Shown: one piece after another, positions 8,162 to 64,000 of the stretch
Numbering within the stretch: position 1 is the stretch's first letter
How the letters are laid out: every line of letters starts with the position of its first letter
Origin: an uncultured Opitutales bacterium
GTDB lineage: Bacteria > Verrucomicrobiota > Verrucomicrobiia > Opitutales > JABDGR01
Direction: 5' to 3'
NCBI GenBank assembly: GCA_964561455.1
Contig: CAZLPS010000009.1
Location: 13,380-77,379 of the forward strand
Length of the DNA stretch: 64,000 bases
The notes under the pieces: model-generated
The model's database searches: none
What the model was told of the DNA's origin: nothing
Seen by the model: only the letters and a program-made list of their open reading frames with translations
Position numbers and translations under genes: made by a program

Positions 8162-8227
8162 ATGCGCCAATATGGCGCATTTAATCGAGCTTTCGGGCTG
8201 CGGACTGAATGCGCCATATTGACGCAT
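8162..8227. promoter_or_regulatory. Two copies of a 19-bp inverted repeat (candidate operator) upstream of hsp20
   Basis: ATGCGCCA-ata-TGGCGCAT (8162-8180) has perfect 8-bp arms. ATGCGCCA-tat-TGACGCAT (8209-8227) has one arm mismatch. The centres are 47 bp apart, 130-200 bp upstream of the hsp20 start. Confidence 0.4.
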
Positions 8228-8269
8228 AAAGCCCGGCCAATACTCCCATCGCTTACGAGAGTACTAATT

Positions 8270-8584: not shown

Positions 8585-8614
8585 ACGCCAAGTGGCAAAG
8601 CCGGAATCGGCAAA

Positions 8615-9994: not shown

Positions 9995-10117
9995 GGCAGA
10001 CGCCGGGGACTATGCCCGTAAACCTTTACGGGTTAGCGCATTAGGCAACGGGTTGTCAAACCTATAATTTGGGCGGGGCTATCAGGTGCCGAAATTAGCT
10101 GGAAGCGGGGAGGTTAA

Positions 10118-10155
10118 GTTTACGGTTTACGGTTTGCGGTTTACCGTTTTACGGG
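10118..10155. repeat. Heptamer array, GTTTACG flavour
   Basis: The array reads gtttacg gtttacg gtttgcg gtttacc gttttacgggg. A related palindrome, cccgtaaa-cc-tttacggg, lies at 10013-10030. Confidence 0.6.
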
Positions 10156-18976: not shown

Positions 18977-19009
18977 CCTGGGCCCGGCTCTTTCACTCCC
19001 CGCCCGCAT

Positions 19010-47787: not shown

Positions 47788-49668
47788 TTACTCCCCGCGC
47801 GAACTCGTCATTTTCCAGTCCGTGTCATACAACACTGGCGATACAAAACCCGGATATGAAATGCCCGGCAGTCGCAACTTTAAGCTGCGCATGTGGGCCG
47901 CAGTTTCATTGGCCAATTGCGCCCGGAACAACGTCAGGTCGAGATTGGCGGGGTTGAAGCCGGGATGGCGCTGGCTCAAGATGGCGTCGGCCGCTTTGTC
48001 GCCGGGATAGAAGGCGTGAAATTCCAAAATGGTCTGCGTGTCGTACATTCCACCGTCGTTCGGGTCGCTGCCGGCCAAGGTGGCCCCGCGGTCGGCCGTG
48101 GCGGGCGCGCCGATGAGAAAATTCCGCCAGTGCGGATGGCCCCACAGGTTGTTCCCCCGGCGCGCAAGCACCACCATCGCCAGAATTTGGAACTGCAGAT
48201 TTCCCGCCTTGGCGCCTTCGGCGGTCGGTTGGCCTTTGGCGTCCAGTCCCCAGTCGAGGAAACTTTGCGCCAGTTCGGCGTCGGCGGCATAGCCTTCGGC
48301 GTCGAATCCCGGCAAGCCTTCGATTGCGGCGAGCGCGAGGAGGTGACTTAATCCATTGCCGGCGGTGGTGCGGCGGCCATAGGTCGCTTTGGCAATAACG
48401 CGGCGCATGGTGTCAAGCTGGTCGGGCGTCATCCATTTGCCGGCAAAGTCCAGCGCCAGGCCGAGGTCGAGATGCGCTGCCACTTCATCCACGCCTTTCC
48501 AGCCGGTCGCGGAAAACCCCGCCAGCGACGGCGTAAAGGCGAATTCGTTTGCCGACGTGGCCAGAATCTCCGTCAGGTGCGGCTCAAGCGCCTGGTAATA
48601 ATTGCAAATCGCCGTGGCCGCCTGCCGGCCGTGGTCGGCATCGTCCGCGAGCAGGCAAAACAGCGCCATGGAGACGAGGCTGTTGGTCGGGTAGTTGACG
48701 TTCGCGGAATAGATGCCCTCGCTCTTGACGTCGGCGGCGTAGTCGGCCGCGCCGCCGTTGACGAGTTTTTGAAAATACTGCCCGTCGGCCGTCCCCGGAT
48801 TCCACCAGGTGTTTTTGAACATGGCCTCCATCTCGGCCATGGACATCTGCATGACAATGCTTTCCTTGATGCGCGCCTGTACGTTGGGCAAATCGTCCGG
48901 ACTGAACAACAACCGCGGATAAACGCCGGGCGCCGGAACCTTGGTGCCCAGCAGCTTTTGCTCGAAACCGCTCAAATTGTAGGCCGAACGCGGGACGGTC
49001 GGCGGCTTGGGCGGCGCCACCGGGGCCGGCAGTTGACCAAGGTATTTTTGTGCGACTTTTGCACTGGCATATTCTTCCGGCATGTCGAACGCGGACACCA
49101 CGTTGTCGTGCAGGTTTAATTCATGCGTGGTAAACGAAAAATCCTCCTTGTGCCCGGCGCAATACAAACCGCTATCGTCATGGAAAAAAGTCAGCCCCAA
49201 GGCGGAACTGGCGTCGGCGAAATTCACATACGTCTTACCCTTCACCTGTATCGTGCGCACAGTCGCCGGCCAGGTTTGGGCCGGTCGGGGAGTGGCATAG
49301 ACCCATCGTTCCCGCAAATAGTCGGGCGCGGCTGCAGCAGGGGTGACGGCCGTCAGGCCCAGGCTGGCCGCAAAGGAGCCGGGGACGTAAACCTCGCCGT
49401 TTTGCAGGACCGGGAATGCATGCAGAGGATCCTCGTCATCCAGCGCCACCCGATAGCCGAGGATGTAGCCATAGCGGCTGCCGGTAAACACCGCAAACTG
49501 ATCCCTGATTTTGTCCACCCCCGCGGGCCAGCCCGTGCGGGTGTACGCCCAGCCGCTATTCTGCCGCAACAGCGCCGGAACGCCGCCCGTCACGGTTTGG
49601 GCCATGCTGGGCAGGGACAAACCATAACCCAGGGCCAAAACGGCCAGTTTCCCACGAATAGAGCGCAT
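47788..49668 (-). CDS. Secreted hypothetical protein; possible heparinase II/III-like polysaccharide lyase
   Basis: The Met at 49668 gives MRSIRGKLAVLALGYGLSLPSMAQT, a signal peptide. The sequence YPRLLFSPDDLPNVQARIKES and an alpha-helical middle region are reminiscent of heparinase II/III N-terminal domains. This is weak pattern recognition only. Confidence 0.5.
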   Translation of the reverse strand: MRSIRGKLAVLALGYGLSLPSMAQTVTGGVPALLRQNSGWAYTRTGWPAGVDKIRDQFAVFTGSRYGYILGYRVALDDEDPLHAFPVLQNGEVYVPGSFAASLGLTAVTPAAAAPDYLRERWVYATPRPAQTWPATVRTIQVKGKTYVNFADASSALGLTFFHDDSGLYCAGHKEDFSFTTHELNLHDNVVSAFDMPEEYASAKVAQKYLGQLPAPVAPPKPPTVPRSAYNLSGFEQKLLGTKVPAPGVYPRLLFSPDDLPNVQARIKESIVMQMSMAEMEAMFKNTWWNPGTADGQYFQKLVNGGAADYAADVKSEGIYSANVNYPTNSLVSMALFCLLADDADHGRQAATAICNYYQALEPHLTEILATSANEFAFTPSLAGFSATGWKGVDEVAAHLDLGLALDFAGKWMTPDQLDTMRRVIAKATYGRRTTAGNGLSHLLALAAIEGLPGFDAEGYAADAELAQSFLDWGLDAKGQPTAEGAKAGNLQFQILAMVVLARRGNNLWGHPHWRNFLIGAPATADRGATLAGSDPNDGGMYDTQTILEFHAFYPGDKAADAILSQRHPGFNPANLDLTLFRAQLANETAAHMRSLKLRLPGISYPGFVSPVLYDTDWKMTSSRGE

Positions 49669-49846
49669 AATGGTCATGCCTGGGAAAATAATGACTCGCT
49701 GCGGCGTGACAATCCCCAATCCCGGTTATGCGCCCGGCGATATATTGCGCTTGGCAAAATTTGTCCCGGCAACTAATTTGCTTCCCGGGCATCCGCAACT
49801 CCGCTCCCAGCCAATCTTTCCCCACCTTTTTCGTAAAAACCACCCG

Positions 49847-51145
49847 ATGGGTCACCGCATCTTAATTTTGGACGACGACGTGGACTTTAACAGTCTGCTC
49901 ACCGACATCTTCAGCCAGGCAGGTTACGATGTGACGCCGGAACTCGATCCGCAGAAGGCGCTCTCCCTCATTCGGGAATTCCAATTTGACCTTGTCGTGA
50001 CCGACCAGCGCATGCCGGGCATCAGTGGCAAGGACTTTTTGCGCGAGTTGAAAAAGGTGCAGCCCCGCACGCCCATTATCATGGTTTCCGGCTTCCTCGA
50101 CAACGAGACCATCCGCGAGCTCATTCGCGAAGGGGTCGGCGGCGTCTTTCTCAAGCCCCTCAATGTCTTTTCGCTGCTCAAGCGCACCGCCAAATTACTG
50201 GAGCAGAGCAATGGCGGCCTGCCCCGCCCGGGCGAGCCCGAATCCGAAGCCGTTGGCCAGCCGGAGTTTCACCATACCCTGCCGTTTGCCTTTTCCTCGT
50301 TTCCCTGCCGCGACGCCAAATCCGGGGAATTCGCCAACAAACTTTACGCCCTGCGGAATTTTAAAAGCTACCTGACGCTCTCCGGGCCCCGCGGCGCCCA
50401 TTTTGCCGCCGTGTGCAGGGATTTTGAGGCCCTCCGCGAAAAGCCGGACGAACGCTTTCTCTTTTTGACCAACACCATGGTCGAGGCCGCCACCTTGTTG
50501 CGTCTGTTGCGGGAAAACGAGGAGCGCGAACGGGTGACCCTCTGTTTCCTTGAAGCCGATACCCTCGACCTCGAGCGCCAGCGCCTGCTGCCGCAGATCG
50601 CGCGCAAAAGCGGCCCGTTTGCGGGCCTCAAACTGATCACGCGGTTCATCTTCTGCCTGTCCGAGAGCCTCGACACCCTCTACGACAACGGCCTGATTGA
50701 TGAGAATTTGTACCTTCTTACCAGCTCGTCCGAATTGGTCGTGCCAGGTCTCGAGGACGTGCGCGACGACATCCCGCTGCTGGCGCAGCAAATTTTGGTG
50801 CGTGAAGCGGCGGCGCAACATTTGAGTCAGGTGCCCAAGTTGGACGTTTCGGCCAGGGCCTATTTGCGCGACCGCGCCTGGCCCGGCAATTACAACGAAT
50901 TACAGCAAGTCATCTTGGGCGCCTTGGGCCAGTCCCGCAAAGGCACGCTGACTCGCGACAGCCTCGAAAAATCCAGCCTCCCCGGCACCTCCCCTGCGGT
51001 TGAATTACGCGAGCATCTTGCCCGCCTGCGCGACGAATACGCCCAGGCGGCAAACATCTTGTGTGGGGGCAACCGCGCCGCCCTCGGCCAAACCCTCGGC
51101 GTTAGCGAGGCCGTTGCCGGGTTGCTGGCGGAACCGAAGGGGTAG
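49847..51145 (+). CDS. NtrC-like response regulator with a degenerate AAA+ domain
   Basis: The ATG at 49847 starts a REC domain: ILILDDDVDFNSLL ... DLVVTDQRMPGISG ... IIMVSG ... FLKP. The central region keeps GNYNELQQVI (compare GNVRELENVI), but the Walker A position reads LSGPRGAHFAAV. The C-terminal sequence GGNRAALGQTLGVSEAV is Fis-type HTH-like. Confidence 0.7.
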   Translation: MGHRILILDDDVDFNSLLTDIFSQAGYDVTPELDPQKALSLIREFQFDLVVTDQRMPGISGKDFLRELKKVQPRTPIIMVSGFLDNETIRELIREGVGGVFLKPLNVFSLLKRTAKLLEQSNGGLPRPGEPESEAVGQPEFHHTLPFAFSSFPCRDAKSGEFANKLYALRNFKSYLTLSGPRGAHFAAVCRDFEALREKPDERFLFLTNTMVEAATLLRLLRENEERERVTLCFLEADTLDLERQRLLPQIARKSGPFAGLKLITRFIFCLSESLDTLYDNGLIDENLYLLTSSSELVVPGLEDVRDDIPLLAQQILVREAAAQHLSQVPKLDVSARAYLRDRAWPGNYNELQQVILGALGQSRKGTLTRDSLEKSSLPGTSPAVELREHLARLRDEYAQAANILCGGNRAALGQTLGVSEAVAGLLAEPKG

Positions 51146-51524
51146 GGGCTTTGCTCGTTTTATTCACCGGCAATCCATCGGCCTGCGGGACATAATACAT
51201 CAGCAGCACCCAGCCGAGAAAAACCGGAAACAACCCCACGGTGACTACTGCCGCGCCGACGATGCCAATAACCACTCCCAGCCACACCGACAGCAGGTTC
51301 ATCACCACCAGGATGCATACCGGCAGCACCACCAGCAAAAACGACACCACATAGCCAATGGACGTGGTGCTGAACGTGAACCCGTCCTCCCCGCCATGCG
51401 CCAGGCCGCATTGGGGGCAGGTGCGATGCAATTGAAACCAGTTGCGCAACTGGCCGCGGGCATCGCAATTTGGGCAGTGCAGGAGCAGGCAGCGCTTGGC
51501 GATTTCTCCGCGGGGAACAATCAT
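51102..51524 (-). CDS. DUF983 family zinc-ribbon membrane protein
   Basis: The sequence CPNCDARGQLRNWFQLHRTCPQCGL is followed by two TM helices. The 3' end overlaps the convergent response-regulator gene by 44 nt. Confidence 0.65.
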   Translation of the reverse strand: MIVPRGEIAKRCLLLHCPNCDARGQLRNWFQLHRTCPQCGLAHGGEDGFTFSTTSIGYVVSFLLVVLPVCILVVMNLLSVWLGVVIGIVGAAVVTVGLFPVFLGWVLLMYYVPQADGLPVNKTSKAPTPSVPPATRQRPR

Positions 51525-51539
51525 GGCTTCTGGAATTCG

Positions 51540-52394
51540 CTACTGAAGGGGCACGAACTCCTGCTGGCCGTTGCCTTCGGTGACAATTACCCCGATCGGC
51601 TTCCCATTGGAATCATACACGATTTTGCCCGACTTCGTGGACGACATGGGCACGGAACTTGTCGAGGGTTGCGCGGGCGTCGGCGCGGTTGGCGCTGCCG
51701 GAGTCGGCGCGGGCGCCGGGCTCGTCACCACGATCGTGGGTGGCGGTGAAATCAACGTGGGCATAATGATTTGCTGTTGCGGGGGCACCACCACACATTC
51801 CCCCAATACCACGCCTTGCGGCGAGGTTTGATAGGCGATGAACGCGCCGGGCGGCACCCGCCGGGAAAGTACGACCTCGCCCGCCGGACCGTATGTGACC
51901 AACGCGACATTTTGCGGCAATGATTCAGCCACAAAATACCCAGGCGGCAGCGTCGAATAGATGGGAACGCCTGCTTGCACGGCATAGACCGGCGTATTCA
52001 CCGGCAAGCCCAGCATATTGGCCAGCTCGACGGTTGCAATGTCCCCAATGCCCCAGACCAGGGACGCCGCGAGCGGCCGAAGCAGCAAATCACGCAAGGT
52101 GTCCCGCGAATCAATAAACCGCGGGCCCGGCGCCGGGCGCACAAAGCGGAATTCCTCGCGATTCGGTCCCACCAGAAAGCGGGGGCCCGCATGCGGATCC
52201 TCGATGGAGACGCGGACATCCGGCCGGCCCATGGGCGGCCCGCCGCGGCCCATTTCCGGTCCCCGGTTTTGCGCCAGGGCCGTGGTCGGGAGCGTCATCG
52301 TGAACATCGCCAGGGCGAAGACGCCCACGGCGACGGCTTGGGAAGTGCGCCCGGGCAGGCCCAGGCAGGAGGAGGGGAGCAATTTCATAGTCAT
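51540..52394 (-). CDS. Hypothetical secreted protein with Pro/Thr/Ala-rich linker
   Basis: The signal-like N-terminus is AVAVGVFALAMFTMTLPTTALAQ. No recognisable domain was found. Confidence 0.5.
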   Translation of the reverse strand: MTMKLLPSSCLGLPGRTSQAVAVGVFALAMFTMTLPTTALAQNRGPEMGRGGPPMGRPDVRVSIEDPHAGPRFLVGPNREEFRFVRPAPGPRFIDSRDTLRDLLLRPLAASLVWGIGDIATVELANMLGLPVNTPVYAVQAGVPIYSTLPPGYFVAESLPQNVALVTYGPAGEVVLSRRVPPGAFIAYQTSPQGVVLGECVVVPPQQQIIMPTLISPPPTIVVTSPAPAPTPAAPTAPTPAQPSTSSVPMSSTKSGKIVYDSNGKPIGVIVTEGNGQQEFVPLQ

Positions 52395-52558
52395 GATGGG
52401 TTCACCGATTGGGACAGGGGGTCGGGCGCGCGAGTTCCGTCACGGGCGGCGCCGGAGCTTAAGTCATTTCAAACGAGCGTTTTAAAATAGATTATTTAAC
52501 GGTTAGTTTGCACAACTAAAGGTTGCGCTGCGAGGAAATTCCGCCAGCTTTCAACGGC

Positions 52559-53644
52559 ATGATCCTCCGCCGCCTCCATGCCCAAAACTTCCGCAACCTC
52601 GCCCTCGTCCGGCTGGAATTTCACGGCGGGCGGACATTTTTTGCCGGCCCCAATGGACAAGGAAAGACCAACGTGCTGGAAGCCGCCGGGTTGCTTGGCG
52701 CGCTGCGCTCGTTTCGCGGCGCGGAGCCGCGCGATTTAATTCAGCACGGCGCCACCGCGGCGCGCGTGTGGTGCGAACTGGAGCATGAGCGCGAGGGTGC
52801 AGTCGAAGTGGAGATTGGGATCCGGCCCAGGCAGCGCGAAGTGGCCATCAACGGCGGCAAGTGCGCGCGCCTCGCGGAATTTCTCGGTCGCTTTCCCGTG
52901 GTGGCGCTCTCCTCTCACGACTTGCAGTTGTTGCGCGGCGCGCCGCCGTTGCGGCGGCGCGCCCTGGATCTCGCGATTTCCTCCCTGGATGAAAGTTACT
53001 TCACGGCCCTGCGCCGCTATCTCGCCGCGCTGGATCAACGCAATGCCCTGTTGCGCGGTTCGCGATCTCCCGCCGTCGCGGAATTGGCCGCGTTTGAAGC
53101 CCAAATGGCGCCCGACGCCGAAACCCTCGTCTCCTTGCGCTCGGCGGCGTGTGCGGATTTGGGTGCGCATCTCACCACCGCCTACGATCGGCTGACGGGC
53201 GGGGCGCCGGAGTCGCCCGGGTTGGCGTACCTGCCCGATTCAACGGCGCAGGCCGTCGCAGATTGGCGCGCGTTATGGGAGGAATCCCGCCCGCGCGACA
53301 GGGTGATGCGCACCACCTTGCACGGGCCCCACCGGGATGATTTCGCCTTCAAACTGGAAAGCCGGGGCGCGAAGAGCTTCGGTTCCGAGGGCCAACAGCG
53401 TGGATTGGTGGTGTCATGGCGCCTCGCCCAAGCTGCGTGGCTGCGGGCCCGGACGGGCATTGCGCCCATTATTCTGGCCGATGACGTGCTCGGCGAGCTG
53501 GATCCCGCGCGCCGCGCTGGCTTCTGGCGCGCGGCGGCAGATGCCGCGCAAGTCCTCGCCTCGGGCACCACCGTCCCCGCAGGGAATGGGGCGGGATGGG
53601 AGGTGTGGAACGTAAACAAGGGGGAGTTTTCCCGCCAATTTTGA
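52559..53644 (+). CDS. recF: DNA replication and repair protein RecF
   Basis: The ATG at 52559 gives MILRRLHAQNFRNLALVRLEF ... FAGPNGQGKTNVLEA (Walker A). The sequence GPHRDDF, the signature-like GSEGQQRGLV and Walker B ILADDVLGELD are all present. Confidence 0.88.
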   Translation: MILRRLHAQNFRNLALVRLEFHGGRTFFAGPNGQGKTNVLEAAGLLGALRSFRGAEPRDLIQHGATAARVWCELEHEREGAVEVEIGIRPRQREVAINGGKCARLAEFLGRFPVVALSSHDLQLLRGAPPLRRRALDLAISSLDESYFTALRRYLAALDQRNALLRGSRSPAVAELAAFEAQMAPDAETLVSLRSAACADLGAHLTTAYDRLTGGAPESPGLAYLPDSTAQAVADWRALWEESRPRDRVMRTTLHGPHRDDFAFKLESRGAKSFGSEGQQRGLVVSWRLAQAAWLRARTGIAPIILADDVLGELDPARRAGFWRAAADAAQVLASGTTVPAGNGAGWEVWNVNKGEFSRQF

Positions 53645-53750
53645 AACAAGGAGGAGACGGAGAACGCGGAGAGGAAGAGTTTACAGTTTACGGTTTACCG
53701 TTTACAGTTTCCACCGTGTACTCGGTGTCCTCCGTGTTTCAAAACTTTTT
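53643..53750 (+). terminator. Composite nested heptamer-repeat hairpin followed by T7; candidate recF terminator
   Basis: The outer arms are gaaacaaggaggagacggagaacgcggag and caccgtgtactcggtgtcctccgtgtttc. They enclose tttacag tttacgg tttaccg tttacag. The sequence aaaacttttttt follows, directly before the ruvC ATG. Confidence 0.45.
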
Positions 53751-53752
53751 TT

Positions 53753-54349
53753 ATGTCCCGTTCCCGTCGTGCATTATGGACCGCCAAGGTGCTGGGCAAA
53801 TTGTCGCCCCGGCCGGGCGCAACCGACGACGAGCTGGCGGAAGCGCAATTTGGGCGGGTGGGGCAGCGGGCCTTTCTCGGCGTGGTGCTCGGGATTGACC
53901 CCAGTCTGCGCGGTACCGGCCTCGCCCTGGTGGAATTTTTGCCGGAGGGCGCGAAATTGCGGTACAGCCGCACCGTGACGATGCCCGCGACGGCGCCGTT
54001 CGCTTCCTGCCTCGCGGAAATCTTTCGGGCGGTGCAGGAGACCATGGCGCGCGGCCACGTGAAGCACGTCGCAATTGAAGAGACGATTTTTGTGCAAAAC
54101 CGCAAGGCGGTGCACATTCTCGGCGCGGCGCGCGGCGCGGCAATTGCCGCAGCCGCGGTCACCGGAGTCGGGGTTTTTGAATACGCGCCCCTCAGGATCA
54201 AACAGGCCGTGGTGGGCTTTGGCCGGGCCAGCAAACCGCAGGTTGGCGGAATGGTGATCCAGCACTTGCAATTAAAAACGGCGCTCCCCGCCGATGAATC
54301 CGATGCCGCCGCCACTGCGCTCTGTCATGCGTTTACGTGGCGGGGATGA
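53753..54349 (+). CDS. ruvC: Crossover junction endodeoxyribonuclease RuvC
   Basis: The sequences VLGIDPSLRGTGLALVE, VAIEETIF, YAPLRIKQAVVGFGRASKPQV and ADESDAAATALCHA match RuvC. The true start may be the GTG at 53882, which would remove an atypical roughly 43-aa N-terminal extension. Confidence 0.88.
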   Translation: MSRSRRALWTAKVLGKLSPRPGATDDELAEAQFGRVGQRAFLGVVLGIDPSLRGTGLALVEFLPEGAKLRYSRTVTMPATAPFASCLAEIFRAVQETMARGHVKHVAIEETIFVQNRKAVHILGAARGAAIAAAAVTGVGVFEYAPLRIKQAVVGFGRASKPQVGGMVIQHLQLKTALPADESDAAATALCHAFTWRG

Positions 54350-54682
54350 GGTGACATCGGGGTGGGCACGGGGTTGGGCGGAATACCATGGCTGGTGCCT
54401 GCGAAGCGGATGGCTTGGAGGAATTGCGCGAGGCCCGCGGGGCGGAATTACCTTGCCCGTCGGCGGCCCAACCGTGGAAGATTGCGCCATCTCCACCCGG
54501 GCCAGATCTTCCTCGCCCGCCTTACTGGAAGAATTGACAACTAACCCCGTTTTCGGGCCCGCCAAACCCGTTCACGGTTCTGACCTGCGCGCCCTGATCG
54601 AGCGCGCCTGGGTGCGGAAGGCGCCGTTGTACGGCACGCAACCGCAATCGTCGGCGGAGGCCGGTTGATTTTTTGCGGGGCT

Positions 54683-54819
54683 CACGCGAAGCCGCGAAGT
54701 GGCGAAGATTAAAATCGCCCACGAACCAACCCGAATGACCTTGGCCAATCAAGAACCCCAATTCATACGCTTTCGTGCTCAAAATCCTTCGCGTTTTCGC
54801 GCCTTCGCGTGCGCCCTCC
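54683..54819. repeat. Inverted pair of GCGAAG-flavour heptamer arrays
   Basis: The left array reads cacgcga agccgcg aagtggc gaagatt. The right array reads tccttcg cgttttc gcgcctt cgcgtgc. Confidence 0.55.
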
Positions 54820-54858
54820 GGTTCGGTGTCCGGGCCAGAATGATCAAAGCGTAAAAAG

Positions 54859-54891
54859 TGCTCGGGAAGGGACTTGAACCCATCTGCCACC
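54859..54891 (-). other. tRNA 3'-end-like fragment (candidate att remnant at an island boundary)
   Basis: The minus strand reads GGTGGCAG ATGGG TTCAAGT CCCTT CCCGAGC A. This is a T-arm with a canonical GTTCAAGTC loop (one stem mismatch) plus a 7-nt acceptor 3' strand and a discriminator base. No matching 5' acceptor strand (GCTCGGG) or D or anticodon arms lie upstream. Confidence 0.35.
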
Positions 54892-55148
54892 GCGAAGCTA
54901 AGTTGCTCATTAACGCGGACTTAGTTGATTGTGAATGGATTAGAACTGGAAGCAAGATACACCTAGTTGCAAGAAAGATAAACAAAATTCATTGATTCTG
55001 GCAACCTCTTGGCAACCTCTATTCGAAAATTGGAAACGCTCGAATTGGAATATCTAAATCAGTATAACAAGGGCTGGACGAGACCGGGGTAGGTATTCAA
55101 GCTAATCGAGCATGCAAGAGAAGTCTAATCGAGCACCTAGAAGCGGGG

Positions 55149-56438
55149 TTGCCCATTTTCTTCAAGAATGGGGTGCGCTTATCTGAGGGAGTGAAGTATA
55201 TAGTTCCCCAAATTACCGAACTAAGTAGCCTTATGCCAAACGACGCGACAACTCCAGCAACCGGGGAGCCGAAAATGACTGCGCCTCCCGCTCCGCAATG
55301 CCCTCCGGCAACGGAAATAGCTTTGGCTTTTCCAATTAACAAGAAGCGATTTGCTATCGCGTGCATTATTTTTGCCAATTTATTTGTTGCAGCTATGGCA
55401 GTTGCTATCGGCATGGGTGTATGGGGCGGAGAAGGATATTGGCATGATATTGTGCGTCGCGCATGGCACAGCATGCAAGAGTTTGGAGATGCCGCTGGAT
55501 TGCCGAGGACTGTCATGAGTATTTTTCTATACTTTGCCCTGAATATACTCCTCGTCCATTTGATTAGAGGGAGAAGTTCCGCGCGCGAAAAACTTTTAGA
55601 TACTTTTGTTGGGCTTATAACTTCCATTTCCTTTTTAGCCGTGGTATTCTTGGTCATTATTATTTTCATCGCTCCGTCTGAGATGTACAAAGAAAGCCGA
55701 ATAGAGAAAGCAACGCTATTGACCGAAAACTTACATACAAAGGCCGACCTATTAATTGTTACAAATGATAACGGAAATTTGACGGCTGAAAATAAAACCA
55801 TCAACGACAGGCTAAGCACCGTCGCATTAGCTTCCGGCATTAATCCGAATGGTGGTCTTAGTGAAAAGATAGATGTTTTTATTGCAGATTTTCAACAAAC
55901 AATAAAAGACCTCCAACAAAACAAGCAAGCCGTTCTCGGGCTACAGGATGAATTAAAAAAATCCGAGATTCCAATTGGCGCACAGTCAATTGCGGCAATA
56001 ACAGTAACTTGCGAAATATCGTATGTTTCAACGGAAGCAAAGAATGCAAATTATTCTCTTTTTACAGGATTGATGTGTTTCGGGCGAGGGGACATCGGGT
56101 TAATTATGGCCAAAGCCACGTCCATATCTTCCACAAGCGACGGCAAGGGCCATATAATTATAAGGGCTACTGGGGCTATGGCCGACGATGATAGTTTTTC
56201 AGGTAATCCGATTTCCAGCCTTGCGAGCAGCGAATACATTGAGATTATATTTGATAAGGCGATTTTGGCGGAGAATACCCCTATATTGGGCGGCCATATA
56301 ACATGGGTCGTAAATAAGGAGCATGTTTTCAGGTTCGATATCCCGGCGCAAGTCGCAAGCAAATCCGCGATTCCAGATGCTGTATTTGTTAAAATAAAAA
56401 ACCTGTCCGATGGGTTTAAATCATTAAATCAAAAGTAG
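55149..56438 (+). CDS. Orphan AT-rich membrane protein (three TM helices, coiled-coil-like linker, beta-rich C-terminal domain)
   Basis: This is the longest ORF in a visibly AT-richer segment. The TM helices are FAIACIIFANLFVAAMAVAIGMGVW, VMSIFLYFALNILLVHLI and LITSISFLAVVFLVIIIFIA. The likelier start is the ATG at 55275, which has GGGGAG 7 nt upstream. No family was recognised. Confidence 0.6.
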   Translation: MPIFFKNGVRLSEGVKYIVPQITELSSLMPNDATTPATGEPKMTAPPAPQCPPATEIALAFPINKKRFAIACIIFANLFVAAMAVAIGMGVWGGEGYWHDIVRRAWHSMQEFGDAAGLPRTVMSIFLYFALNILLVHLIRGRSSAREKLLDTFVGLITSISFLAVVFLVIIIFIAPSEMYKESRIEKATLLTENLHTKADLLIVTNDNGNLTAENKTINDRLSTVALASGINPNGGLSEKIDVFIADFQQTIKDLQQNKQAVLGLQDELKKSEIPIGAQSIAAITVTCEISYVSTEAKNANYSLFTGLMCFGRGDIGLIMAKATSISSTSDGKGHIIIRATGAMADDDSFSGNPISSLASSEYIEIIFDKAILAENTPILGGHITWVVNKEHVFRFDIPAQVASKSAIPDAVFVKIKNLSDGFKSLNQK

Positions 56439-57037
56439 GGCAACGCACCTAAAACACGCCAAAGAAAACAACAATTTCGCGGAATTTATTGAACTTTGCA
56501 AGAAAACCCATCCTCACGCCATCCAGCGGCACTTTCATGCCGTGGTTAATTTGTTACTGGCTCGTTATCGTTGGTCGCTTAACGGACATTGAAGTTTCCG
56601 GGCAAAATGCTTGAAATGGGACGACCGCCTCCGCCCCCTCCTTATGGGCTCGTACAGGATTGCCACAATGAACACAAGTAAACGGGGTCTTAAAATCCTT
56701 TCCTTTGTATTGGCTACGAATTTCGAGAGCATTGGCAATGCCGATACGTTCGCCTTGGTAGATAACTCCGCCCATAGATCTTATTTAACTCCTCGCCACC
56801 ATCGCGCCCTACCCACCCAGCTTGCCCGGAGCGCTCGCAACTGCGCTGGTACCTCACTGCCTGGCCAGATGCGTGACGGCCGGGCTCCGGGGGTGACTTG
56901 GCGGATCATTACCAGCGTAGCGGGTGGGACATAGCATTTTGGGAGTATCCCTATTGCGCGCAGTCCATTTTTACTTTGTCAGGTAGAGATATTTCTGGTA
57001 ACGGATTCACGACGAAAATGGATCAGGAACCCCCACG

Positions 57038-60000
57038 TTGAAATTTTTTGCCCCATCTGATGCTCGGATGTCGCCTGTTTTTTTGCCAGCGACAATGCGG
57101 TGCTTTGTGGTTTTTCTGGTTTTGCTGATGGGGATTGGTTTTCAAAATACTGGACGCGGCGCAACCTTTGACGGCAACGGGTTCCTGCAAATTCCCGACA
57201 GCACCGGTTCGCTGAGTTGGAATGGGACCAATAATGCGCTCACCGTTATGTGTTGGGTAAAACTTTCCTTCCCGTCCAACATTACCCTTACCAGCAGCGA
57301 CCGCATGGTAGTGATCGTGAATCGCCAGACCGGCAGCGCTACGAGCAATACGTATGCTTTTCTAATCCAGTTTAACGCTTCGACCGGGAACTTGGAATTT
57401 CAAACCCGGGGCAGTACTGCAACCTCGACGCCGCTTACCCTCGTCACTCGTCCTTTCCTGGATCGGTGGTATCATGTGGCCATTGTGCGGGCGGGAAATG
57501 TCATTCAGGCCTATGTAGACGGCGAGCCGGTTTCCCCGACAGTTGACGCATCATCATTGGGGAACCCCTCGAACACGGACGGTGTTTCGGTTGGCGGCTG
57601 GACCGGTAGCCGAAACCTAGTGGGCGAAGTGGAAGAAGTGCGCATTTTTCAAACTGCATTGAATCAAGGCGATATTCAGCAAGTCATGTTTGAGGATTTG
57701 GTTCCTTCCGATTGGCCGCCCCTCACCGGGTATTTCAAGTTTGGCCCGGCCACTGCTCAAAGCGATAGCCTAAAAAACTATGCCCTAGCTCCGGCGGCCG
57801 GGACCGATAGCGCATCCATTTCCGGTTCGGGAGTTACCTTCCCCCAAGTGGATCAGGCAGGCGAACAATCGCTCTTTGACTCCCACCGGAATGGCGGGCG
57901 CGACGCCGTCGCTCCTTTGTCGGGCGCTTTTACCTGGCAACACACTCTTTTTTCCCGCCCAACCAAAGGGGTGGGGTTTGATTTTACCATTGGCTATTCC
58001 AGCGCGCTTTCTTTCAACGATGCCAATCCATTCCTCGTCACTCCACTCGGCCATGGTTGGCGGCACAGCTTGGAGGCGCGTGTCATCCTGCCGGATTTAA
58101 TCCAGGGCTTTAGCACGCTCATTTTGAGCACGTGGGACGGCGATTTGATCGTTTGGGACCTGGATGAGACCAATCTAAATTCCACCAGCTATTTGGCGCG
58201 CGACGGCCAGTATCATGGGGAACTGCAATTCGAGGGCAGTAACCCCGGTGCCTCCAGCGCCATTCTGGACTGGATAACCCCCGATCGCCAGATTTACCGT
58301 TTTCACACTCCTTTTGCCGGCTCTCCAACCACGCTGCGCGGTCGATTGCTCAACATTGGAGATTATGCCGGAAACAAGATCACCATCAGCCGCTTTACCA
58401 CTGGAACCTTGTCCGGCGAAATTAACACCGTGACCGACTCGGCTGGCAGCACCTACCAATTCACCTACAATGCCAGCTCGCAATTGACCAAAATCGCCCT
58501 CAATGGCACATCCTGGGCATGGACTTTTACCTACGGCCTTTTCAATTCCGGCTCGCCAGCCGACAATCTGCTTACCAGCGTCGCGACCACTGGGCCGTCA
58601 TCCGTCTCGCCAGTGGCGACCACTTGGAGTTTTGACTACCAAGCGGAGAATAATGCCTGGTTGATCAAAACCATTCAAGATCCTCTCGGAGCGAGTAACA
58701 ACCGTCCGGCAAAACTCATCAACGTTACCTACGATACATATGGCCGGAAAACCACGGTTGACGACGCCCTCAATCGGCAAACAGCCTTTCAGTATAACCT
58801 GCCAGCGACCCGCCAGGTGACGACAACCGATGCGCGAGCCAATACCTGGATCACTACCTATGACCGCCGACTCAATGTCACCGCTGCCGCTGATCCCTAC
58901 GGCAACACCACTGCTTACGTTTATGATGGGGCCGGCAATCCTACTCAAATAACAGATCCCCTTGGGAACATCACGCATCACACCTATGACGCCCGGAGTA
59001 ATGTCTTGTCCACGACCGATGCTCTCAATTTCACGAACTTCGCCACCTATCCCGACAATTTGCCTGCCAATGCGCCTTTCCTGAATAGTCCCTTGACCAC
59101 CACCGACGCCACTAGTTGGGTGCAAACCTATGTTTACGATTCTGCAAATGGTAAACTCCTTCGACAGTTTGATGGCTTGGGCAATTTAGCCATTTACACC
59201 TACACGACCACCGGTTTGGTGCAAAACGTGACGGATGCCAATGGCAACGTAACCTCGTTTGCCTACTCTCCGGAGGGCTTTCTCGCTTCTCGGCTCGACC
59301 CGGGCCAATCTACGGCCGCGACTTTCACCCATACAGATTTCGGCTGGCTGGCCACGACCACCAACCCGCTGGGTGAAGTTACCCAGAGTTTTTACGATGT
59401 AAATGGCAACTCGGTGAGCGTGATTGATGCCCTGCAACGCAACCACGTCCGCGTCTTTGACCTCAACAGCAACCTCATCGAAGACGACGACTTCAAGAGC
59501 CAACGCACCACTTATACCTATGACGATGCCAATGAGCGAATAGGCATGGTCACTCGCGACGGGCAGCACTGGTCATACCAATACAGCCCCACGGGCAAAC
59601 TCGCTCAAACCACCGTGCCCTCCACTTCGCCAGACACGCCGGACATCATCAATACCTATGACAATGCCGACCGCCTCGTAAAAGTCGCGCAGACCACTAG
59701 TTCCACTGAATACAGTGTGCAAACCGTTTACGACGCCGCCGGCAATCCGACGACGACCATTGACCGAAACGGCCAGGAATGGGTTAAGACTTACGATGCC
59801 CTAAATCGGGTCCGCACGGAAAAAGATCCCCAGGGGAACCAAGTGACTCGAACTTACGACGCCAACGGGCGCATCGCCGATATCATCTCCCCCACGGGCA
59901 ACACCCAGCACCACCTTTACGATAACCGTGGCCGGTTGCACACCTGGCAGGATGGCGAGGGTGGCGTTTGGACCTATGCCTACGACGGCAACGGCAATAT

Positions 60001-62176
60001 CTTACTCATCACTGATGCGCTCAAAGGCAATTACACCATGACCTACGGGCCGCGCAACGAACGCCTTACCGAGACGAATCAGGACAACAAAACTTGGACG
60101 TACACGTATGACGCCCTCCTCCGTCCATATAATGAAACTGATCCGAATGGCCGCACGAATGCCAATACTTATAATTCGGGCGGCCAACTGATTTCGGTGG
60201 CATATTCCACCGGGCGCGCGGATGCCATTAGTTACGATGCGAACAACAATGTGCACATGCTGACGCGCACCGATTCCGGTGGGGCCACAACCGCCACTAC
60301 GCTGGAATATGACGCGATGGACCGCATCATCGGCAACTACTTAGACGCCCATTTCACGGCCGGATTTGAATATGACCCTTTGGGCCGGCGCAAAACGCTT
60401 AATTATCCTGACGGCAAGCCACTTTCGTATTCATATGACGCGCTTGGGCGCCTGACCAAACAAACCGACTGGGCCAACCGCCAGCTTAACTACTCCTACG
60501 ACAGTGCTGGCCGTCTCCAGACCCGCACCTATCCCAACGGCGTGAGCCAGATCAATGGTTATGACAACGCAGGCCGGTTGACTCTGCTACGCTATTCCTC
60601 CACTGCCTCCAACACAACGCTACTCGAATACGAATACACTTACGACCCCAATAACAACCTTTCTTCGTCGGATGAAGTGGGCACGCTCGATTGGACACCG
60701 CCCGCGCATCTGCCCAACGAAACCTCCGCCTTTACCGCTGCTGGCCGCCTCGTCACCCGCCAGGATGCGGCTGATACTTCAGGAAAGCACAATTGGTCTT
60801 ATTCCTACGACGACGCCGGGAACATGAACAACGCCACGCGCAATGACGGCGCGAAGTATCAGCTCACCTACGACGAGCAGAACCGTACCACCCGCATCCA
60901 GTGGACGCCTGGCCAGGCGGGGCTATCAGGTGCAGCCTCCGCCGCAGACATTACCAACCATTACGATGCCTTGGGTCGCCGCGTTTCACGCACCCTAAAT
61001 GGCACGGAAACGCGCTACGCGCTCGACCTCGGCGGCTCCATGGAGCGCGTCCTGTGCGACACGGATGCCACCGGGAAGATTACCGCTTGGTATGTCCATG
61101 GACCCGACCTGTGCTATAAAATTACCCTTGACGGAAACGATCAGGAAGTCCTCACGGACTACCATGCCGACACAGCGGGCAACGTCGTCATGCTCACCGG
61201 TGCCAACGCCACCATAGCGGAAAAATATGCCTTTACGCCCTATGGCCGCCTCCTCGGCGAACAAGCCACGAGCGGCACCCTCTCCGGCAACCCCTACCGC
61301 TTTGCGGGTTCACAAGGCGTCATAGAGGAACTCCCTGGCCTCTCCTTCATGCGCGCCCGCTACTACCTCGCTGAAGAGGGCGTGTTTTTAAGCACAGACC
61401 CGGTGAAACATGCCGGTCCTGAGTGGGGATCAAAAACGTATGTTTACACAAATGGGAACCCTGTTGGTTTTATTGACGCAGATGGAAATGGTCCCATTGA
61501 GGCAATACTTGGTGCTGCGGTTGGAATGGTCGCTGGTTTTACTTCGGAGGTGGTCAATCAAAGCATCAATAAGTTTTTAGAGCACCGTCAATTTGATTGG
61601 AATGAAGTTGTAACCTCAACTGCGGCTGATGGATTGGGCGGACTTGCCGGTGGACTTGCAGATGATCCTGCCGAAGGAGGAGCTGTCGCAGAAGATTACC
61701 GTGGTTATATTAGAGCAACTTCCAATGGCGAGGTATACACTTCGCAACAGTTTCTAGCCGACTCAATTAAGGGCGCTGCTACGGCTCAAATCCTAGATCA
61801 AATGTACAGTTCAAGTTTTGGAAACGTTCCCGGTGTTAAACCATCTACCATTAGCGGTGCGTTTCAAGGGGCACACTTTGTAGACACAGTTGCGCGAAAT
61901 TCTAGTGCCGCTCTTGAAGAAGTGATTCAAGCCACCACTGCATCACATCAAGCATCCTCCTTGAACTCATTTCAGTCTACGAAGGCTATCGCGCCTTCCG
62001 TCAATTCCGGGACTTCTAGCTCTGGCGGTGGGAGTTCTATCACCATCCCGAAGGGCGCAACGCTGTCGGGCATTGCCGCGCAGAATAACACTACCGTTTC
62101 AAATCTCCTTAAGCTCAATCCCCAGATCACGAATGCGAACAAAATCCAGGCTAATGCAAAGCTGAAAGTGAAATAA
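57038..62176 (+). CDS. LamG-domain RHS/YD-repeat protein with variable C-terminal tip ending in a LysM domain
   Basis: The N-terminal signal or anchor is VVFLVLLMGIGF. A LamG-like region runs FDGNGFLQIPD ... LTVMCWVKLS ... DRWYHVAIVRAGNVIQAYVDGEPV ... VEEVRIFQTAL. There are dozens of YD repeats, for example YVYDGAGNPTQITDPLGN and YAYDGNGNILLITDALKGN. The RHS core end reads YRFAGSQG ... FMRARYYLAEEGVFLSTDPV ... YVYTNGNPVGFIDADGNG. A 227-aa tip follows, ending in ITIPKGATLSGIAAQNNTTVSNLLKLNPQITNANKIQANAKLKV (LysM). Confidence 0.9.
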   Translation: MKFFAPSDARMSPVFLPATMRCFVVFLVLLMGIGFQNTGRGATFDGNGFLQIPDSTGSLSWNGTNNALTVMCWVKLSFPSNITLTSSDRMVVIVNRQTGSATSNTYAFLIQFNASTGNLEFQTRGSTATSTPLTLVTRPFLDRWYHVAIVRAGNVIQAYVDGEPVSPTVDASSLGNPSNTDGVSVGGWTGSRNLVGEVEEVRIFQTALNQGDIQQVMFEDLVPSDWPPLTGYFKFGPATAQSDSLKNYALAPAAGTDSASISGSGVTFPQVDQAGEQSLFDSHRNGGRDAVAPLSGAFTWQHTLFSRPTKGVGFDFTIGYSSALSFNDANPFLVTPLGHGWRHSLEARVILPDLIQGFSTLILSTWDGDLIVWDLDETNLNSTSYLARDGQYHGELQFEGSNPGASSAILDWITPDRQIYRFHTPFAGSPTTLRGRLLNIGDYAGNKITISRFTTGTLSGEINTVTDSAGSTYQFTYNASSQLTKIALNGTSWAWTFTYGLFNSGSPADNLLTSVATTGPSSVSPVATTWSFDYQAENNAWLIKTIQDPLGASNNRPAKLINVTYDTYGRKTTVDDALNRQTAFQYNLPATRQVTTTDARANTWITTYDRRLNVTAAADPYGNTTAYVYDGAGNPTQITDPLGNITHHTYDARSNVLSTTDALNFTNFATYPDNLPANAPFLNSPLTTTDATSWVQTYVYDSANGKLLRQFDGLGNLAIYTYTTTGLVQNVTDANGNVTSFAYSPEGFLASRLDPGQSTAATFTHTDFGWLATTTNPLGEVTQSFYDVNGNSVSVIDALQRNHVRVFDLNSNLIEDDDFKSQRTTYTYDDANERIGMVTRDGQHWSYQYSPTGKLAQTTVPSTSPDTPDIINTYDNADRLVKVAQTTSSTEYSVQTVYDAAGNPTTTIDRNGQEWVKTYDALNRVRTEKDPQGNQVTRTYDANGRIADIISPTGNTQHHLYDNRGRLHTWQDGEGGVWTYAYDGNGNILLITDALKGNYTMTYGPRNERLTETNQDNKTWTYTYDALLRPYNETDPNGRTNANTYNSGGQLISVAYSTGRADAISYDANNNVHMLTRTDSGGATTATTLEYDAMDRIIGNYLDAHFTAGFEYDPLGRRKTLNYPDGKPLSYSYDALGRLTKQTDWANRQLNYSYDSAGRLQTRTYPNGVSQINGYDNAGRLTLLRYSSTASNTTLLEYEYTYDPNNNLSSSDEVGTLDWTPPAHLPNETSAFTAAGRLVTRQDAADTSGKHNWSYSYDDAGNMNNATRNDGAKYQLTYDEQNRTTRIQWTPGQAGLSGAASAADITNHYDALGRRVSRTLNGTETRYALDLGGSMERVLCDTDATGKITAWYVHGPDLCYKITLDGNDQEVLTDYHADTAGNVVMLTGANATIAEKYAFTPYGRLLGEQATSGTLSGNPYRFAGSQGVIEELPGLSFMRARYYLAEEGVFLSTDPVKHAGPEWGSKTYVYTNGNPVGFIDADGNGPIEAILGAAVGMVAGFTSEVVNQSINKFLEHRQFDWNEVVTSTAADGLGGLAGGLADDPAEGGAVAEDYRGYIRATSNGEVYTSQQFLADSIKGAATAQILDQMYSSSFGNVPGVKPSTISGAFQGAHFVDTVARNSSAALEEVIQATTASHQASSLNSFQSTKAIAPSVNSGTSSSGGGSSITIPKGATLSGIAAQNNTTVSNLLKLNPQITNANKIQANAKLKVK

Positions 62177-62243
62177 CGCTTCCGTCACCTTAAATTCGAC
62201 TCCAATGACCCCGGCCAGTTCCATCAAGCAGCCCATTTACAGC

Positions 62244-64000
62244 ATGACAAAGTTCATGCTGCTGGGGCTGTTTGTGGCCAAGTCTGTCCATGCCCAAATT
62301 GCCCTGGATAACTCAATCCCGGTTGGCATCCAGACTGGCTCTTCCGAAACTCTGGCCTACACGGTGTCAGGTTCAGATACATTTTTGATCGTGGGAATAT
62401 CGGTTCAGGGAGGAGCCACCTGCACAGGCGTTTTCTACAGCGGAATTCCCATGACTCAAGCAGGAGCACCCGTTTTATATTCTGCCATTAACGAATACGA
62501 GTATACTTATATACTGCTTGGGCCTTCGTCGGGCACACATAATATTTTGGCTACTTTTAGCGGGTCTGCGGTCAATGCAATTACTGCTGCTTCCTACACG
62601 GGCGTCGCGGCTGTTGATACTACAAACATCACGTCGTCCACTTCCGCCAGAGACTGGTCAGGCACCATTACTACTGCGGTAGATGGCGAGTGGATTGTTG
62701 GATACGCCAGAGCGTCCGGGCCCATGACGGCAAGGGACAATACCATCATCAGGCAAGACCCAGTCAGTGAAAACATTATTGATTCAAACGGGGCGGTCTT
62801 TAGTTTGGGATCTAATTCTATTGGAGTACATCAAGGTTCAATTGATTTCATGTATATTGGGGCTGTAGCGCTCAAGCCGGGTGTCCAATCGGGTGGCCAA
62901 TCTGGGTGGAATTATGGGGATGGCCGGCACGGCTCCTATACGTTAACCACCAGCATGACCATCGAGCAGCTTTACCAAGCCGTGCGCCTTCCCACTGATC
63001 CGGCGCAGTACAACCCGTCAGATCCGGGCGCAGTTCCCAATTTTGCGAATTTCACCGTGGCCAACAATTCCACGCTCTCGGCGTCCGCTTGGAATGGCAC
63101 CGTCGGTGGTACAATCGTTTTTAAAACCCAATTTACGCTGCAAGTGGTGGCGGGGGCTTCGATTTCGGTCAATGGCCTTGGGTATGGCGGGGGAGCCACC
63201 TTTCAGGCAGGTGATGCACCACCGGGAAGTGGTGGCGGCGGAAGCGGGGGCGTGGTGGTAAAAAATGGCCGTTTCACGAATTATACCCCCGGCGGCGGAG
63301 GAGGTGGGTATGGATCACCGGGCGGCAACGGGATTTACGTGCTTTTTAACGGTGGACCTACCGGTGGCTGGGGTGGGAACGCTTATGGCAACGAAGTCTT
63401 GGATGCCTTACTCTTGGGTAGCGGTGGTGGCGGCGGGGCCAGTGGTGATCCTGTGTTGCGTCCGGAAGATGGCGGCAGTGGGGGTGGCGCCATAGCGCTA
63501 AGTGCCGCCCGAATTATCCTCAATGGTACAATCCAAGCCAATGGGGGTGGAGGTGGGTATACCTCCAATTCCCTCTTTCAATCTAATGGAGGTGCGGGCG
63601 GTGGAGGCGGGAGTGGCGGATCGGTGTTGATACGCACGAATTCTGCGGCTTTGGGTGTAAACAATCTTTCCGCCAGCGGTGGCGTCGGCGGGTATTTGGG
63701 TGGCACCGGCGGCGATGGCAGAATCAGAATCAATTTCTCCGCCAGCACTACTGGAACCACCTCGCCAGCAGCGTCCTTCTTTAACGACAACACCAACGAT
63801 GTGGATGGCGATGGTGTTCCAGACGCGGTCGAATGGGGGCCGGATTTGGATCATCCCAAGGACACCGATCATGATGGCATTCCCGATTTCATGGACTCCG
63901 ACAGCGACAATAACGGCATTCCGGATTCGGTGCAATTGGGCCCGGATGGCCTGGATCGCACCCAGGACACTGATGGCGATGGCATTCCGAATTATTGGGA
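62244..64000 (+). CDS. Large secreted glycine-rich protein with thrombospondin type-3-like calcium-binding repeats (3' end beyond window; absent from the ORF track)
   Basis: Hand translation shows an open frame from the ATG at 62205 or 62244 to the window end without a stop. The signal peptide is MTKFMLLGLFVAKSVHAQ. Gly-rich blocks include GGGGGGYGSPGGNG, SGGGGGASG, GGAGGGGGSGGSVLIR and GGVGGYLGGTGGDGRIRI. These are followed by DVDGDGVPDAVE, DTDHDGIPDFMD, DSDNNGIPDSVQ and DTDGDGIPNYW. Confidence 0.75.
   Translation, partial: MTKFMLLGLFVAKSVHAQIALDNSIPVGIQTGSSETLAYTVSGSDTFLIVGISVQGGATCTGVFYSGIPMTQAGAPVLYSAINEYEYTYILLGPSSGTHNILATFSGSAVNAITAASYTGVAAVDTTNITSSTSARDWSGTITTAVDGEWIVGYARASGPMTARDNTIIRQDPVSENIIDSNGAVFSLGSNSIGVHQGSIDFMYIGAVALKPGVQSGGQSGWNYGDGRHGSYTLTTSMTIEQLYQAVRLPTDPAQYNPSDPGAVPNFANFTVANNSTLSASAWNGTVGGTIVFKTQFTLQVVAGASISVNGLGYGGGATFQAGDAPPGSGGGGSGGVVVKNGRFTNYTPGGGGGGYGSPGGNGIYVLFNGGPTGGWGGNAYGNEVLDALLLGSGGGGGASGDPVLRPEDGGSGGGAIALSAARIILNGTIQANGGGGGYTSNSLFQSNGGAGGGGGSGGSVLIRTNSAALGVNNLSASGGVGGYLGGTGGDGRIRINFSASTTGTTSPAASFFNDNTNDVDGDGVPDAVEWGPDLDHPKDTDHDGIPDFMDSDSDNNGIPDSVQLGPDGLDRTQDTDGDGIPNYW

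Follow-up and report, generated by a model that had tools for sequence, protein, structure and literature searches.

We describe here a gene for a large RHS/YD-repeat protein, and in particular the C-terminal tip of that protein, found in a stretch of 64,000 nucleotides (nt) from an uncultured soil bacterium of the Opitutales (Verrucomicrobiota; contig CAZLPS010000009.1, positions 13,380 to 77,379), which we call the window. In keeping with this origin, the thymidine phosphorylase gene of the window, a housekeeping gene, shows 91-93% identity to metagenome-assembled genomes of Opitutales/Verrucomicrobiae. The RHS protein ends in a tip of 227 amino acids (aa) composed of a glycine- and alanine-rich domain of ~143 aa, a linker rich in serine, threonine and glycine, and a LysM domain, and it is followed by a second large gene for a secreted protein (Table 1). 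Judged from its sequence, the protein has a LamG-headed cocoon, predicted to be Sec-exported, and belongs to a distinct RHS lineage in whose polymorphic "toxin slot" the tip is found. An initial annotation had read the tip as a possible toxin with glycine-zipper-like hydrophobic segments and without an adjacent immunity gene, and all the positions it gave (open reading frame (ORF), tip start, segments, linker, LysM, stop and next ATG codons) were recovered.

Architecture of the RHS protein

The likely true start of the RHS gene is the ATG at 57095, which opens a signal peptide (MRCFVVFLVLLMGIGF...). In agreement, the gene call begins at the equivalent position in a twin public contig (ENA ERZ27245402 k141_650915, here L002), which matches window positions 49006-64000 with one mismatch and runs 1483 nt further. 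The LamG domain is followed by a YD/RHS shell, recognised in Pfam and NCBIfam by PF05593 (RHS_repeat, E 9e-65, 15 stretches) and TIGR01643 (E 7.9e-44), and by an Rhs-associated core. Both autoproteolytic aspartates are present in this core, within ..STDP.. and ..IDADGN, and these align with the DP and DP(L)G of the solved Rhs cores 8qjd and 7pq5. The PDB matches to the core region also include the mosquito proteins SGS1 and SGS4. Across the cleavage-type motif the translation runs from NPVGFIDADGN into GPIEAILGAAVGMVAGFTSEVV, tip residue P1486 beginning at 61493. The proline of DPxG is replaced by alanine in the window protein and in one of its relatives (P0011).

No PAAR domain was matched at the N-terminus, which consists of the signal peptide and LamG, and no type VI secretion system (T6SS) domain was found in the scanned ORFs flanking the RHS gene or in the ten large window ORFs scanned. 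By its architecture the protein is predicted to be of the RHS polymorphic-toxin type, but it lacks the adjacent immunity gene by which this type is defined and it is not of the T6SS kind. It resembles the LamG- or SH3-headed RHS toxins of the Sec/type II secretion route (Zhang et al. 2012) and the WapA-type YD toxins, which also combine a signal peptide and an N-terminal domain for carbohydrate binding with an RHS shell and a variable tip (PMC3482391). However, these toxins are defined by a cognate immunity gene directly downstream, which is absent here and in ~10 related loci. The role described for LysM in such proteins is that of an accessory domain for adhesion, and in contrast to OmpA it has not been reported at their extreme C-terminus (PMC3482391); its place as the last domain of the window protein, after the cleavage site, is unusual.

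Table 1. Coordinates of the RHS gene, its tip and neighbouring genes. Rows without a locus label refer to the window; L and P labels denote the other loci and proteins compared.
Feature	Position	Strand	Remarks
RHS/YD-repeat protein ORF	57038..62176	+	1712 aa from TTG at 57038; stop TAA ends at 62176
N-terminal LamG (Laminin_G_3)	57173..57679	+	aa 46-214; E 4.3e-17, 63 bits
Codon W604	58846..58848	+	TGG in window, TAG in L002 (9841-9843); only difference in 14,995 nt
Rhs-associated core TIGR03696	61235..61486	+	aa 1400-1483; 45.8 bits against cut-off 32.5
Cleavage-type motif NPVGFIDADGN	61457..61489	+	variant of PxxxxDPxGL
Conserved tip domain	61493..61921	+	~143 aa, 14.8 kDa, pI 4.3; predicted helical, low confidence
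Segment 1, PIEAILGAAVGMVAGFTSEVV	61493..61555	+	apolar post-cleavage helix; G7xxxG11xxxG15
Segment 2, AADGLGGLAGGLADDP	61622..61669	+	small-residue helix 2 (STAAxGLGG)
S/T/G/A/N-rich low-complexity linker	~61922..62041	+	AlphaFold2 pLDDT ~27-30
C-terminal LysM	62042..62173	+	aa 1669-1712; PF01476, E 1.7e-7
Intergenic gap	62177..62243	.	28 nt to ATG 62205, or 67 nt to ATG 62244
Giant secreted protein, 5' part	62205..64000	+	signal peptide, Gly-rich region, TSP3_bac repeats, one YD repeat, Ig_3
Downstream gene, P0008 contig			1346-aa protein 33 nt after RHS gene
Giant, L001 (P0009)	4698-8435		1245-aa protein ~150 nt after RHS gene
Giant, L005 (P0011)	4437-8042		after RHS gene: PIN/Phd pair on opposite strand, 73-aa ORF, then 1202+-aa LamG protein
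Giant, L086 (sister tip)	6042-10139		24 nt after RHS gene
Giant, L088 (sister tip)	3774-7376		0 nt after RHS gene
Giant, P0038 contig (sister tip)			overlaps RHS gene
Giant, L090 (sister tip)	1495-6294		after RHS gene
Giant, L089 (sister tip)			after RHS gene
Giant, L087	9309-11774		
Family-B DNA polymerase gene	4494-6722	-	
Two tandem trypsin-PDZ_3 protease genes	17384-20632	+	HtrA-like
PATR-repeat protein gene	27041-28861	+	autotransporter-type

A rare tip family in a polymorphic slot without adjoining immunity genes

Sequence comparison indicates that the tip domain is a new and very rare cargo family, with six members among 1.8 billion representatives. These were found by an exhaustive phmmer search (1.84 billion representative proteins), one of the six being the window's own protein; the five relatives (E 7e-25 to 2e-6) are all RHS C-termini and follow directly after the cleavage motifs DPDGN, DPTGE or DADGQ. 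The common domain spans ~143-160 aa, with a mean column identity of 58%, and both G/A-rich segments are kept across the family. Helix 1 has the consensus [GA]A[AVL]VG[GM]xxG, in which G11 and G15 are invariant in 6/6 members, and the consensus of helix 2 is STAAxGLGG. Among the charged residues just one Glu is invariant, and there is no apparent catalytic constellation. A low-complexity S/T/G/N linker precedes either of two endings, namely LysM in the window protein, P0007 and P0011, and basic or amphipathic tails in P0008, P0009 and P0010. In a scan of the tip by itself, the LysM of the window scores 31.5 bits (cut-off 20.9). AlphaFold2 (AF2) models it as beta-alpha-alpha-beta (E-H-H-E) with a predicted local distance difference test score (pLDDT) of 76-83, and its best PDB matches are the LysM domains of Ecp6, LytN and SafA.

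When the tip and all six family members were compared with Pfam, NCBIfam, PADLOC and PHROGs only LysM was matched, and no hydrolase or other enzyme domain was detectable in the window tip by these family-library scans. The Pfam Gly-zipper families gave no match to the tip at E<=10. Sequence and profile searches of the tip core against all PDB chain sequences returned only LysM proteins or noise. A word-indexed protein search with the tip also returned only LysM proteins, and the same kind of search with the family alignment returned nothing, low-complexity words having saturated the candidate list. No relatives came up when GTDB genomes and JGI metagenomes were pattern-scanned with the family alignment, and tblastn of the tip against plasmids and phages gave no match.

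Using the last 306 aa of the shell as the query, we found 38 relatives of the shell end, 39-59% identical (mostly 45-58%). The tips carried by these shells belong to at least 12 families unrelated by BLASTP that nevertheless have a common layout: an N-terminal helical and often G/A-rich part, an S/T/G/N linker and a C-terminal module. This module is LysM in five sister tips (P0016, P0038, P0040, P0043, P0046), a polybasic or amphipathic tail in at least six (P0013, P0017, P0033, P0036, P0028, P0048) and Peptidase_M23 in one (P0023), and all three kinds of module point to the cell envelope. The linker and LysM of the window are 45% identical over 103 aa to those of P0040, while the N-terminal part of P0040 is unrelated to the window tip. 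We found no additional tip cassettes or orphan Rhs-core fragments in the window. One sister locus, L088, holds an orphan fragment consisting of a shell end with a LysM tip (2124-3773), which starts at the position matching RHS residue ~1171. A 458-aa ORF (102-1478), integrase-like by eye, stands upstream of this fragment, and the giant gene directly follows it. This arrangement hints at cassette mobility.

As a rule, the pairing of a toxin gene with an immunity gene is what identifies RHS and other polymorphic toxins and allows their targets to be inferred; the present lineage has a polymorphic slot without immunity genes. For the window, the absence of a small gene after the RHS stop had been proposed in the initial annotation, and the comparison of loci strengthens the proposal. 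A six-frame scan of 62100-62320 down to 15 aa gave only antisense or alternative-frame ORFs overlapping the two large genes, among them one 29-aa antisense ORF with a Shine-Dalgarno-like match, and no credible ORF in the gap itself. No terminator or promoter match was found in the gap either. A conserved small ORF downstream of the RHS gene was also sought in about 10 homologous or sister loci, and none was found. As far as these loci represent it, the lack of an adjacent immunity gene is a trait of the whole RHS lineage.

Several candidates for an immunity gene were considered and rejected. The ORFs of 51, 39 and 67 aa in L001, L090 and L089 are mutually unrelated, rich in P, R, S and H, and without counterpart in the window. 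The upstream 401-aa protein with three transmembrane (TM) segments (55233-56438) has no relative among the comparable upstream ORFs of L086, L087 and L088, and the upstream ORFs in general are not conserved between the loci compared. A PIN/Phd pair in L005 and a PIN gene in L087 look like unrelated toxin-antitoxin insertions. These PIN-domain genes stand directly after the RHS tip on the opposite strand (L005 2944-3578 (-); L087 7343-7931 (-)), before the giant gene.

Wherever the sequence of a locus of the lineage extends downstream of the RHS gene, the next gene of appreciable size codes for a giant secreted protein of TSP3/lectin type. In the window the ATG codons at 62205 and 62244 share the frame and are followed by the signal-peptide-like MTKFMLLGLFVAKSVHAQ; in full the protein has 997 aa and ends at the equivalent of 65198 (L002 13200-16193). 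The giants carry bacterial TSP3 repeats and, in most cases, one isolated YD/RHS repeat. Their lectin-like heads vary and include a Gly-rich region, FGE-sulfatase x2, LamG and Ig/Lectin_C/cadherin. The giant gene is often 0-33 nt from the RHS gene or overlaps it. The two genes look like an operon, and synteny suggests a functional link between their products.

In this sense, the locus resembles the Tc (ABC) toxin pair TcB-TcC, which also combines an RHS cocoon, a cargo without need of an immunity gene and a very large adjoining partner of receptor-binding type. Unlike in Tc toxins, no Pfam domain of TcA type was found in the downstream giant, a TcB-like beta-propeller is missing and the tip carries LysM; among all the downstream giants the domains found were TSP3_bac, Ig_3, Lectin_C, LamG, FGE-sulfatase and a single RHS repeat, and none of the TcA family. 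It would be a speculative and rather unlikely extension that the LamG-RHS protein and the TSP3/lectin giant form an unrecognised two-component delivery system of Verrucomicrobia-like bacteria, frequently switched off and loaded with immunity-less envelope-binding cargos. Such a system may follow a Tc-like logic of cocoon and receptor-binding partner, directed to targets with an exposed wall such as Gram-positives, fungi or protists. Behind a variable warhead, its cargo may carry a linker and, last, LysM, a polybasic tail or M23, and its producers may switch it off by single nonsense or frameshift mutations.

Possible roles of the tip

The reading that we favour, with a probability of roughly 40%, is that the tip is an envelope-directed cargo acting from outside, for which no cognate immunity would be needed. 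In this mechanism the Rhs core would self-cleave after DADGN, and the first apolar small-residue helix would hold the cargo packed against the inner face of the shell. Upon release at the target, LysM would attach the cargo to peptidoglycan or chitin that lies exposed; the G/A-rich domain, acidic and non-enzymatic, would then perturb the envelope, most likely at the membrane surface. The cargo would be caged during its passage through the periplasm of the producer, the wall of the producer would lie protected under its outer membrane, and targeting would probably be set by the LamG head and the lectin-like partner; therefore no cognate immunity protein would be needed. A caged and outside-acting cargo would also explain why no immunity gene is found in any locus of the lineage. 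Zhang et al. take polymorphic toxins that have no immunity gene next to them to be directed at non-kin or eukaryotes (PMC3482391). Among the explanations listed in the initial annotation for the missing gene, a payload that acts only from outside or is not self-toxic fits best, an anchoring module is a live rival, and immunity encoded elsewhere is possible.

A combination of LysM with an envelope-directed effector is also seen in Acinetobacter baumannii Tae17, Tpe4 and Tpe18, and the sister tip P0023 pairs the same type of shell with an M23 peptidase. However, the A. baumannii proteins are T6SS-secreted enzymes, whereas the window tip has no detectable hydrolase domain. If the cargos of this lineage are toxic, a diderm could use caged, outside-acting weapons without the cost of immunity, and several new non-enzymatic effector families would be added.

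A number of results weigh against an envelope-directed cargo. With regard to the membrane step, no TM-grade segment is present in any of the six members of the tip family: the best 19-mer of the window tip reaches 1.45 on the Kyte-Doolittle scale, and its Hessa dG adds up to +5.9 kcal/mol (from +2.8 to +7.2 in the six members), compared with a Hessa value of +1.2 for the RHS protein's own signal peptide, all of these being simple scale sums and not the output of a dedicated TM predictor. The domain is acidic (pI 4.3), which is atypical for peptides attacking anionic bacterial membranes. Its fold is predicted with low confidence: AF2 on six-sequence alignments gave a mean pLDDT of 46.6 for the full tip and of 50.3 for the P0008 domain (predicted template modelling score 0.46), the first ~105 residues forming four helices at pLDDT 50-66 and the remainder staying <50 except LysM. 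Foldseek of the P0008-domain model against the PDB, the sole fold library used, gave nothing below E 2.4. Its top matches (small G/A-rich helical membrane subunits, complex I, TIM23) were rejected as non-significant hits of a poor model.

Other points against it concern the history of the gene and the room in the shell. The window tip is without an 11-aa segment, VPK[VI]S..G.NY (~61800-61840, tip aa ~106-109), that is kept in the other five members. The identity of the tip tracks that of the shell (0.51 vs 0.52 between the window and P0008, 0.36 vs 0.43 between the window and P0009), so the tip has travelled with its shell and was not recently swapped in like a classical cassette. By our own estimate the 23.1-kDa tip takes ~28,000 A3, roughly 87% of a Tse5-size cavity of 32,000 A3; full encapsulation is therefore uncertain, and as in teneurins the shell might leave the linker and LysM outside. 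In addition, 5/7 tip-family sequences carry one nonsense or frameshift lesion, each at a different place. These are the amber codon of L002 (Table 1), an in-frame TAA inside otherwise conserved RHS frames in L003 (116-118) and L004 (711-713), and frameshifts in L005 (~1598-1628) and in the P0008 contig (8001-8038); the gene looks intact only in the window (5.1 kb) and in L001 (4.3 kb). Intact and amber-stopped RHS alleles appear to coexist, or were sampled separately, in one population. As a whole, the pattern looks like frequent recent inactivation against long-term conservation.

Among the alternatives, the one that survives best, which we consider possible though doubtful, is that the tip is a non-toxic anchoring or adhesion module tethering the cocoon to the wall through LysM, or to membranes through the polybasic tails of the relatives. 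Together with the LamG head and the giant it would then belong to a surface or adhesin complex, and the cocoon would be structural, as in teneurins and mosquito SGS. The C-terminal modules of the lineage, LysM and K-rich or amphipathic tails, would all be envelope-binding, the neighbour genes are adhesin-like, and no immunity gene was found at any locus of the lineage. The co-divergence of the tip with its shell and the size of the tip, whose linker and LysM might lie outside the cavity, fit an anchor as well. Solved YD shells with non-toxin C-termini (SGS1 and SGS4) are found among the PDB matches to the core, and in teneurins and SGS, too, the C-terminal region behind the YD shell is not obviously enzymatic. 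However, they are eukaryotic proteins, and the cleavage site of teneurins is degenerate; the window protein keeps the autoproteolysis motif with both catalytic aspartates. The slot is polymorphic among the relatives, and the presence of at least 12 unrelated "warheads" on similar shells is a signature of conflict and not of anchoring. Additionally, one sister tip is an M23 peptidase, LysM occurs in just 3/6 family members and the conserved part is the helical domain. If the cargos are non-toxic, the lineage would represent a bacterial case of an RHS cocoon with a structural or adhesive use, comparable to that of teneurins.

A second alternative, which we regard as unlikely, is a classical glycine-zipper pore-forming toxin of the Tse5-CT, CdzC/D or EsxX-CT kind, whose two G/A-rich helices would insert as a hairpin and depolarise the targets and whose immunity would be encoded elsewhere. 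The glycine motif proposed in the initial annotation is real. The tip holds 6 GxxxG vs 2.2 expected from shuffles (p~0.005-0.014), while its single GxxxGxxxG is not significant alone (p~0.17 vs shuffles). As G11 and G15 are invariant in all six members the motif is under constraint, and for the sequences at hand conservation is a stronger argument for it than enrichment. Membrane insertion itself is only weakly supported: the G/A segments are conserved, yet their scale sums fall below TM grade in 6/6 members. Lys or Arg lies inside segment 1 in three of them (P0008, P0009, P0011), the second segment carries Asp residues, and the grand average of hydropathy of the domain is 0.04-0.25 across the six. 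Sister tips with the same LysM tail do have TM-grade hairpins, and P0040 has a near-TM-grade hydrophobic segment (Hessa +0.8).

Furthermore, an apolar start seems to belong to the lineage and not to this tip in particular. For 28 tips of the RHS lineage that represent many unrelated families, an apolar stretch is nearly always present within the 28 residues that follow the cleavage motif, the mean maximum Kyte-Doolittle value over 11-mers being 1.61 there vs 0.63 in later windows (Mann-Whitney p=6e-9). A profile of helix 1, loop and helix 2 matched the otherwise different tip P0020 weakly (~47 columns, 53% identity, probability 40%), which suggests that this module may be common to both. In Tse5 (RhsP1, PA2684) of Pseudomonas aeruginosa, the first 27 cargo residues are the only ordered part inside the shell (PMC10684867). 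Because the apolar start is lineage-wide and these Tse5 residues are ordered, a shell-contacting or delivery helix accounts for segment 1 at least as well as a toxin-specific membrane anchor does.

The comparison with the known pore formers leads to a similar balance. Tse5-CT is a pore-forming Rhs tip (PMC9637101), and Tse5 resembles the window protein in its RHS shell with an Asp-protease cleavage site, in first cargo residues that are ordered within the shell (PMC10684867), as proposed for the window protein, and, in principle only, in a non-enzymatic helical cargo domain of ~15-16 kDa (PMC9637101). However, Tse5 is delivered by the T6SS through a PAAR-like N-terminus, whereas the window protein has a Sec signal peptide and LamG, and its linker and LysM come after the cargo domain. 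Tse5-CT has predicted TM helices, and the window tip has neither a TM-grade segment nor an immunity gene. No sequence similarity was found between the two, assuming that the deposited Tse5 chains include the C-terminal toxin, and the tip has no similarity in the PDB beyond LysM proteins. No small membrane-protein gene adjoins the RHS gene in any locus, whereas Tsi5, whose gene reportedly adjoins tse5, is a membrane protein with two TM segments. Tde1 and CdzC/CdzD also have cognate immunity partners. Immunity proteins are reported for EsxX too, and the Tde1 N-terminus, CdzC/CdzD and EsxX-CT share with the window tip repeated GxxxG on one helix face at the start of the delivered polypeptide (PMC10240207, PMC5380434, PMC12744356). 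Glycine zippers drive membrane permeabilisation in Tde1 (PMC10240207) and EsxX; however, the window tip has no homology to these proteins, is less hydrophobic and has no downstream toxin domain needing translocation.

Finally, it is quite improbable that the locus is a decaying remnant, with tip and RHS protein non-functional in most carriers and an immunity gene lost earlier, its absence being mechanistically meaningless: the single lesions of the five carriers, the orphan fragment of L088, the internally deleted RHS copy of the sister locus L087 and the 11-aa deletion of the window copy would agree with decay, but the window and L001 frames are intact, the lesions are single and different and thus each recent, the 36-51% identity of the domain parallels that of the shell and implies purifying selection over the long term, and both the absence of immunity and the giant partner are also seen in loci without visible lesions.

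Other features of the window

The GC content is ~0.60 for the genome and over most of the window, and drops to 0.39-0.48 at 54.8-56.8 kb; the RHS shell has ~0.55 and the tip 0.48, a difference that we count in favour of the cargo reading. We found neither a tRNA nor a flanking repeat to mark an island boundary. The low-GC block (54800-56800), between ruvC and the RHS gene, encodes the 401-aa protein mentioned above (ORF 55233-56438 (+)), which has three N-terminal hydrophobic segments that are TM-like by eye, no Pfam or PADLOC match and no relative at the loci compared. Elsewhere in the window we observed a family-B DNA polymerase gene, two tandem HtrA-like protease genes and a gene for an autotransporter-type protein with PATR repeats (Table 1).

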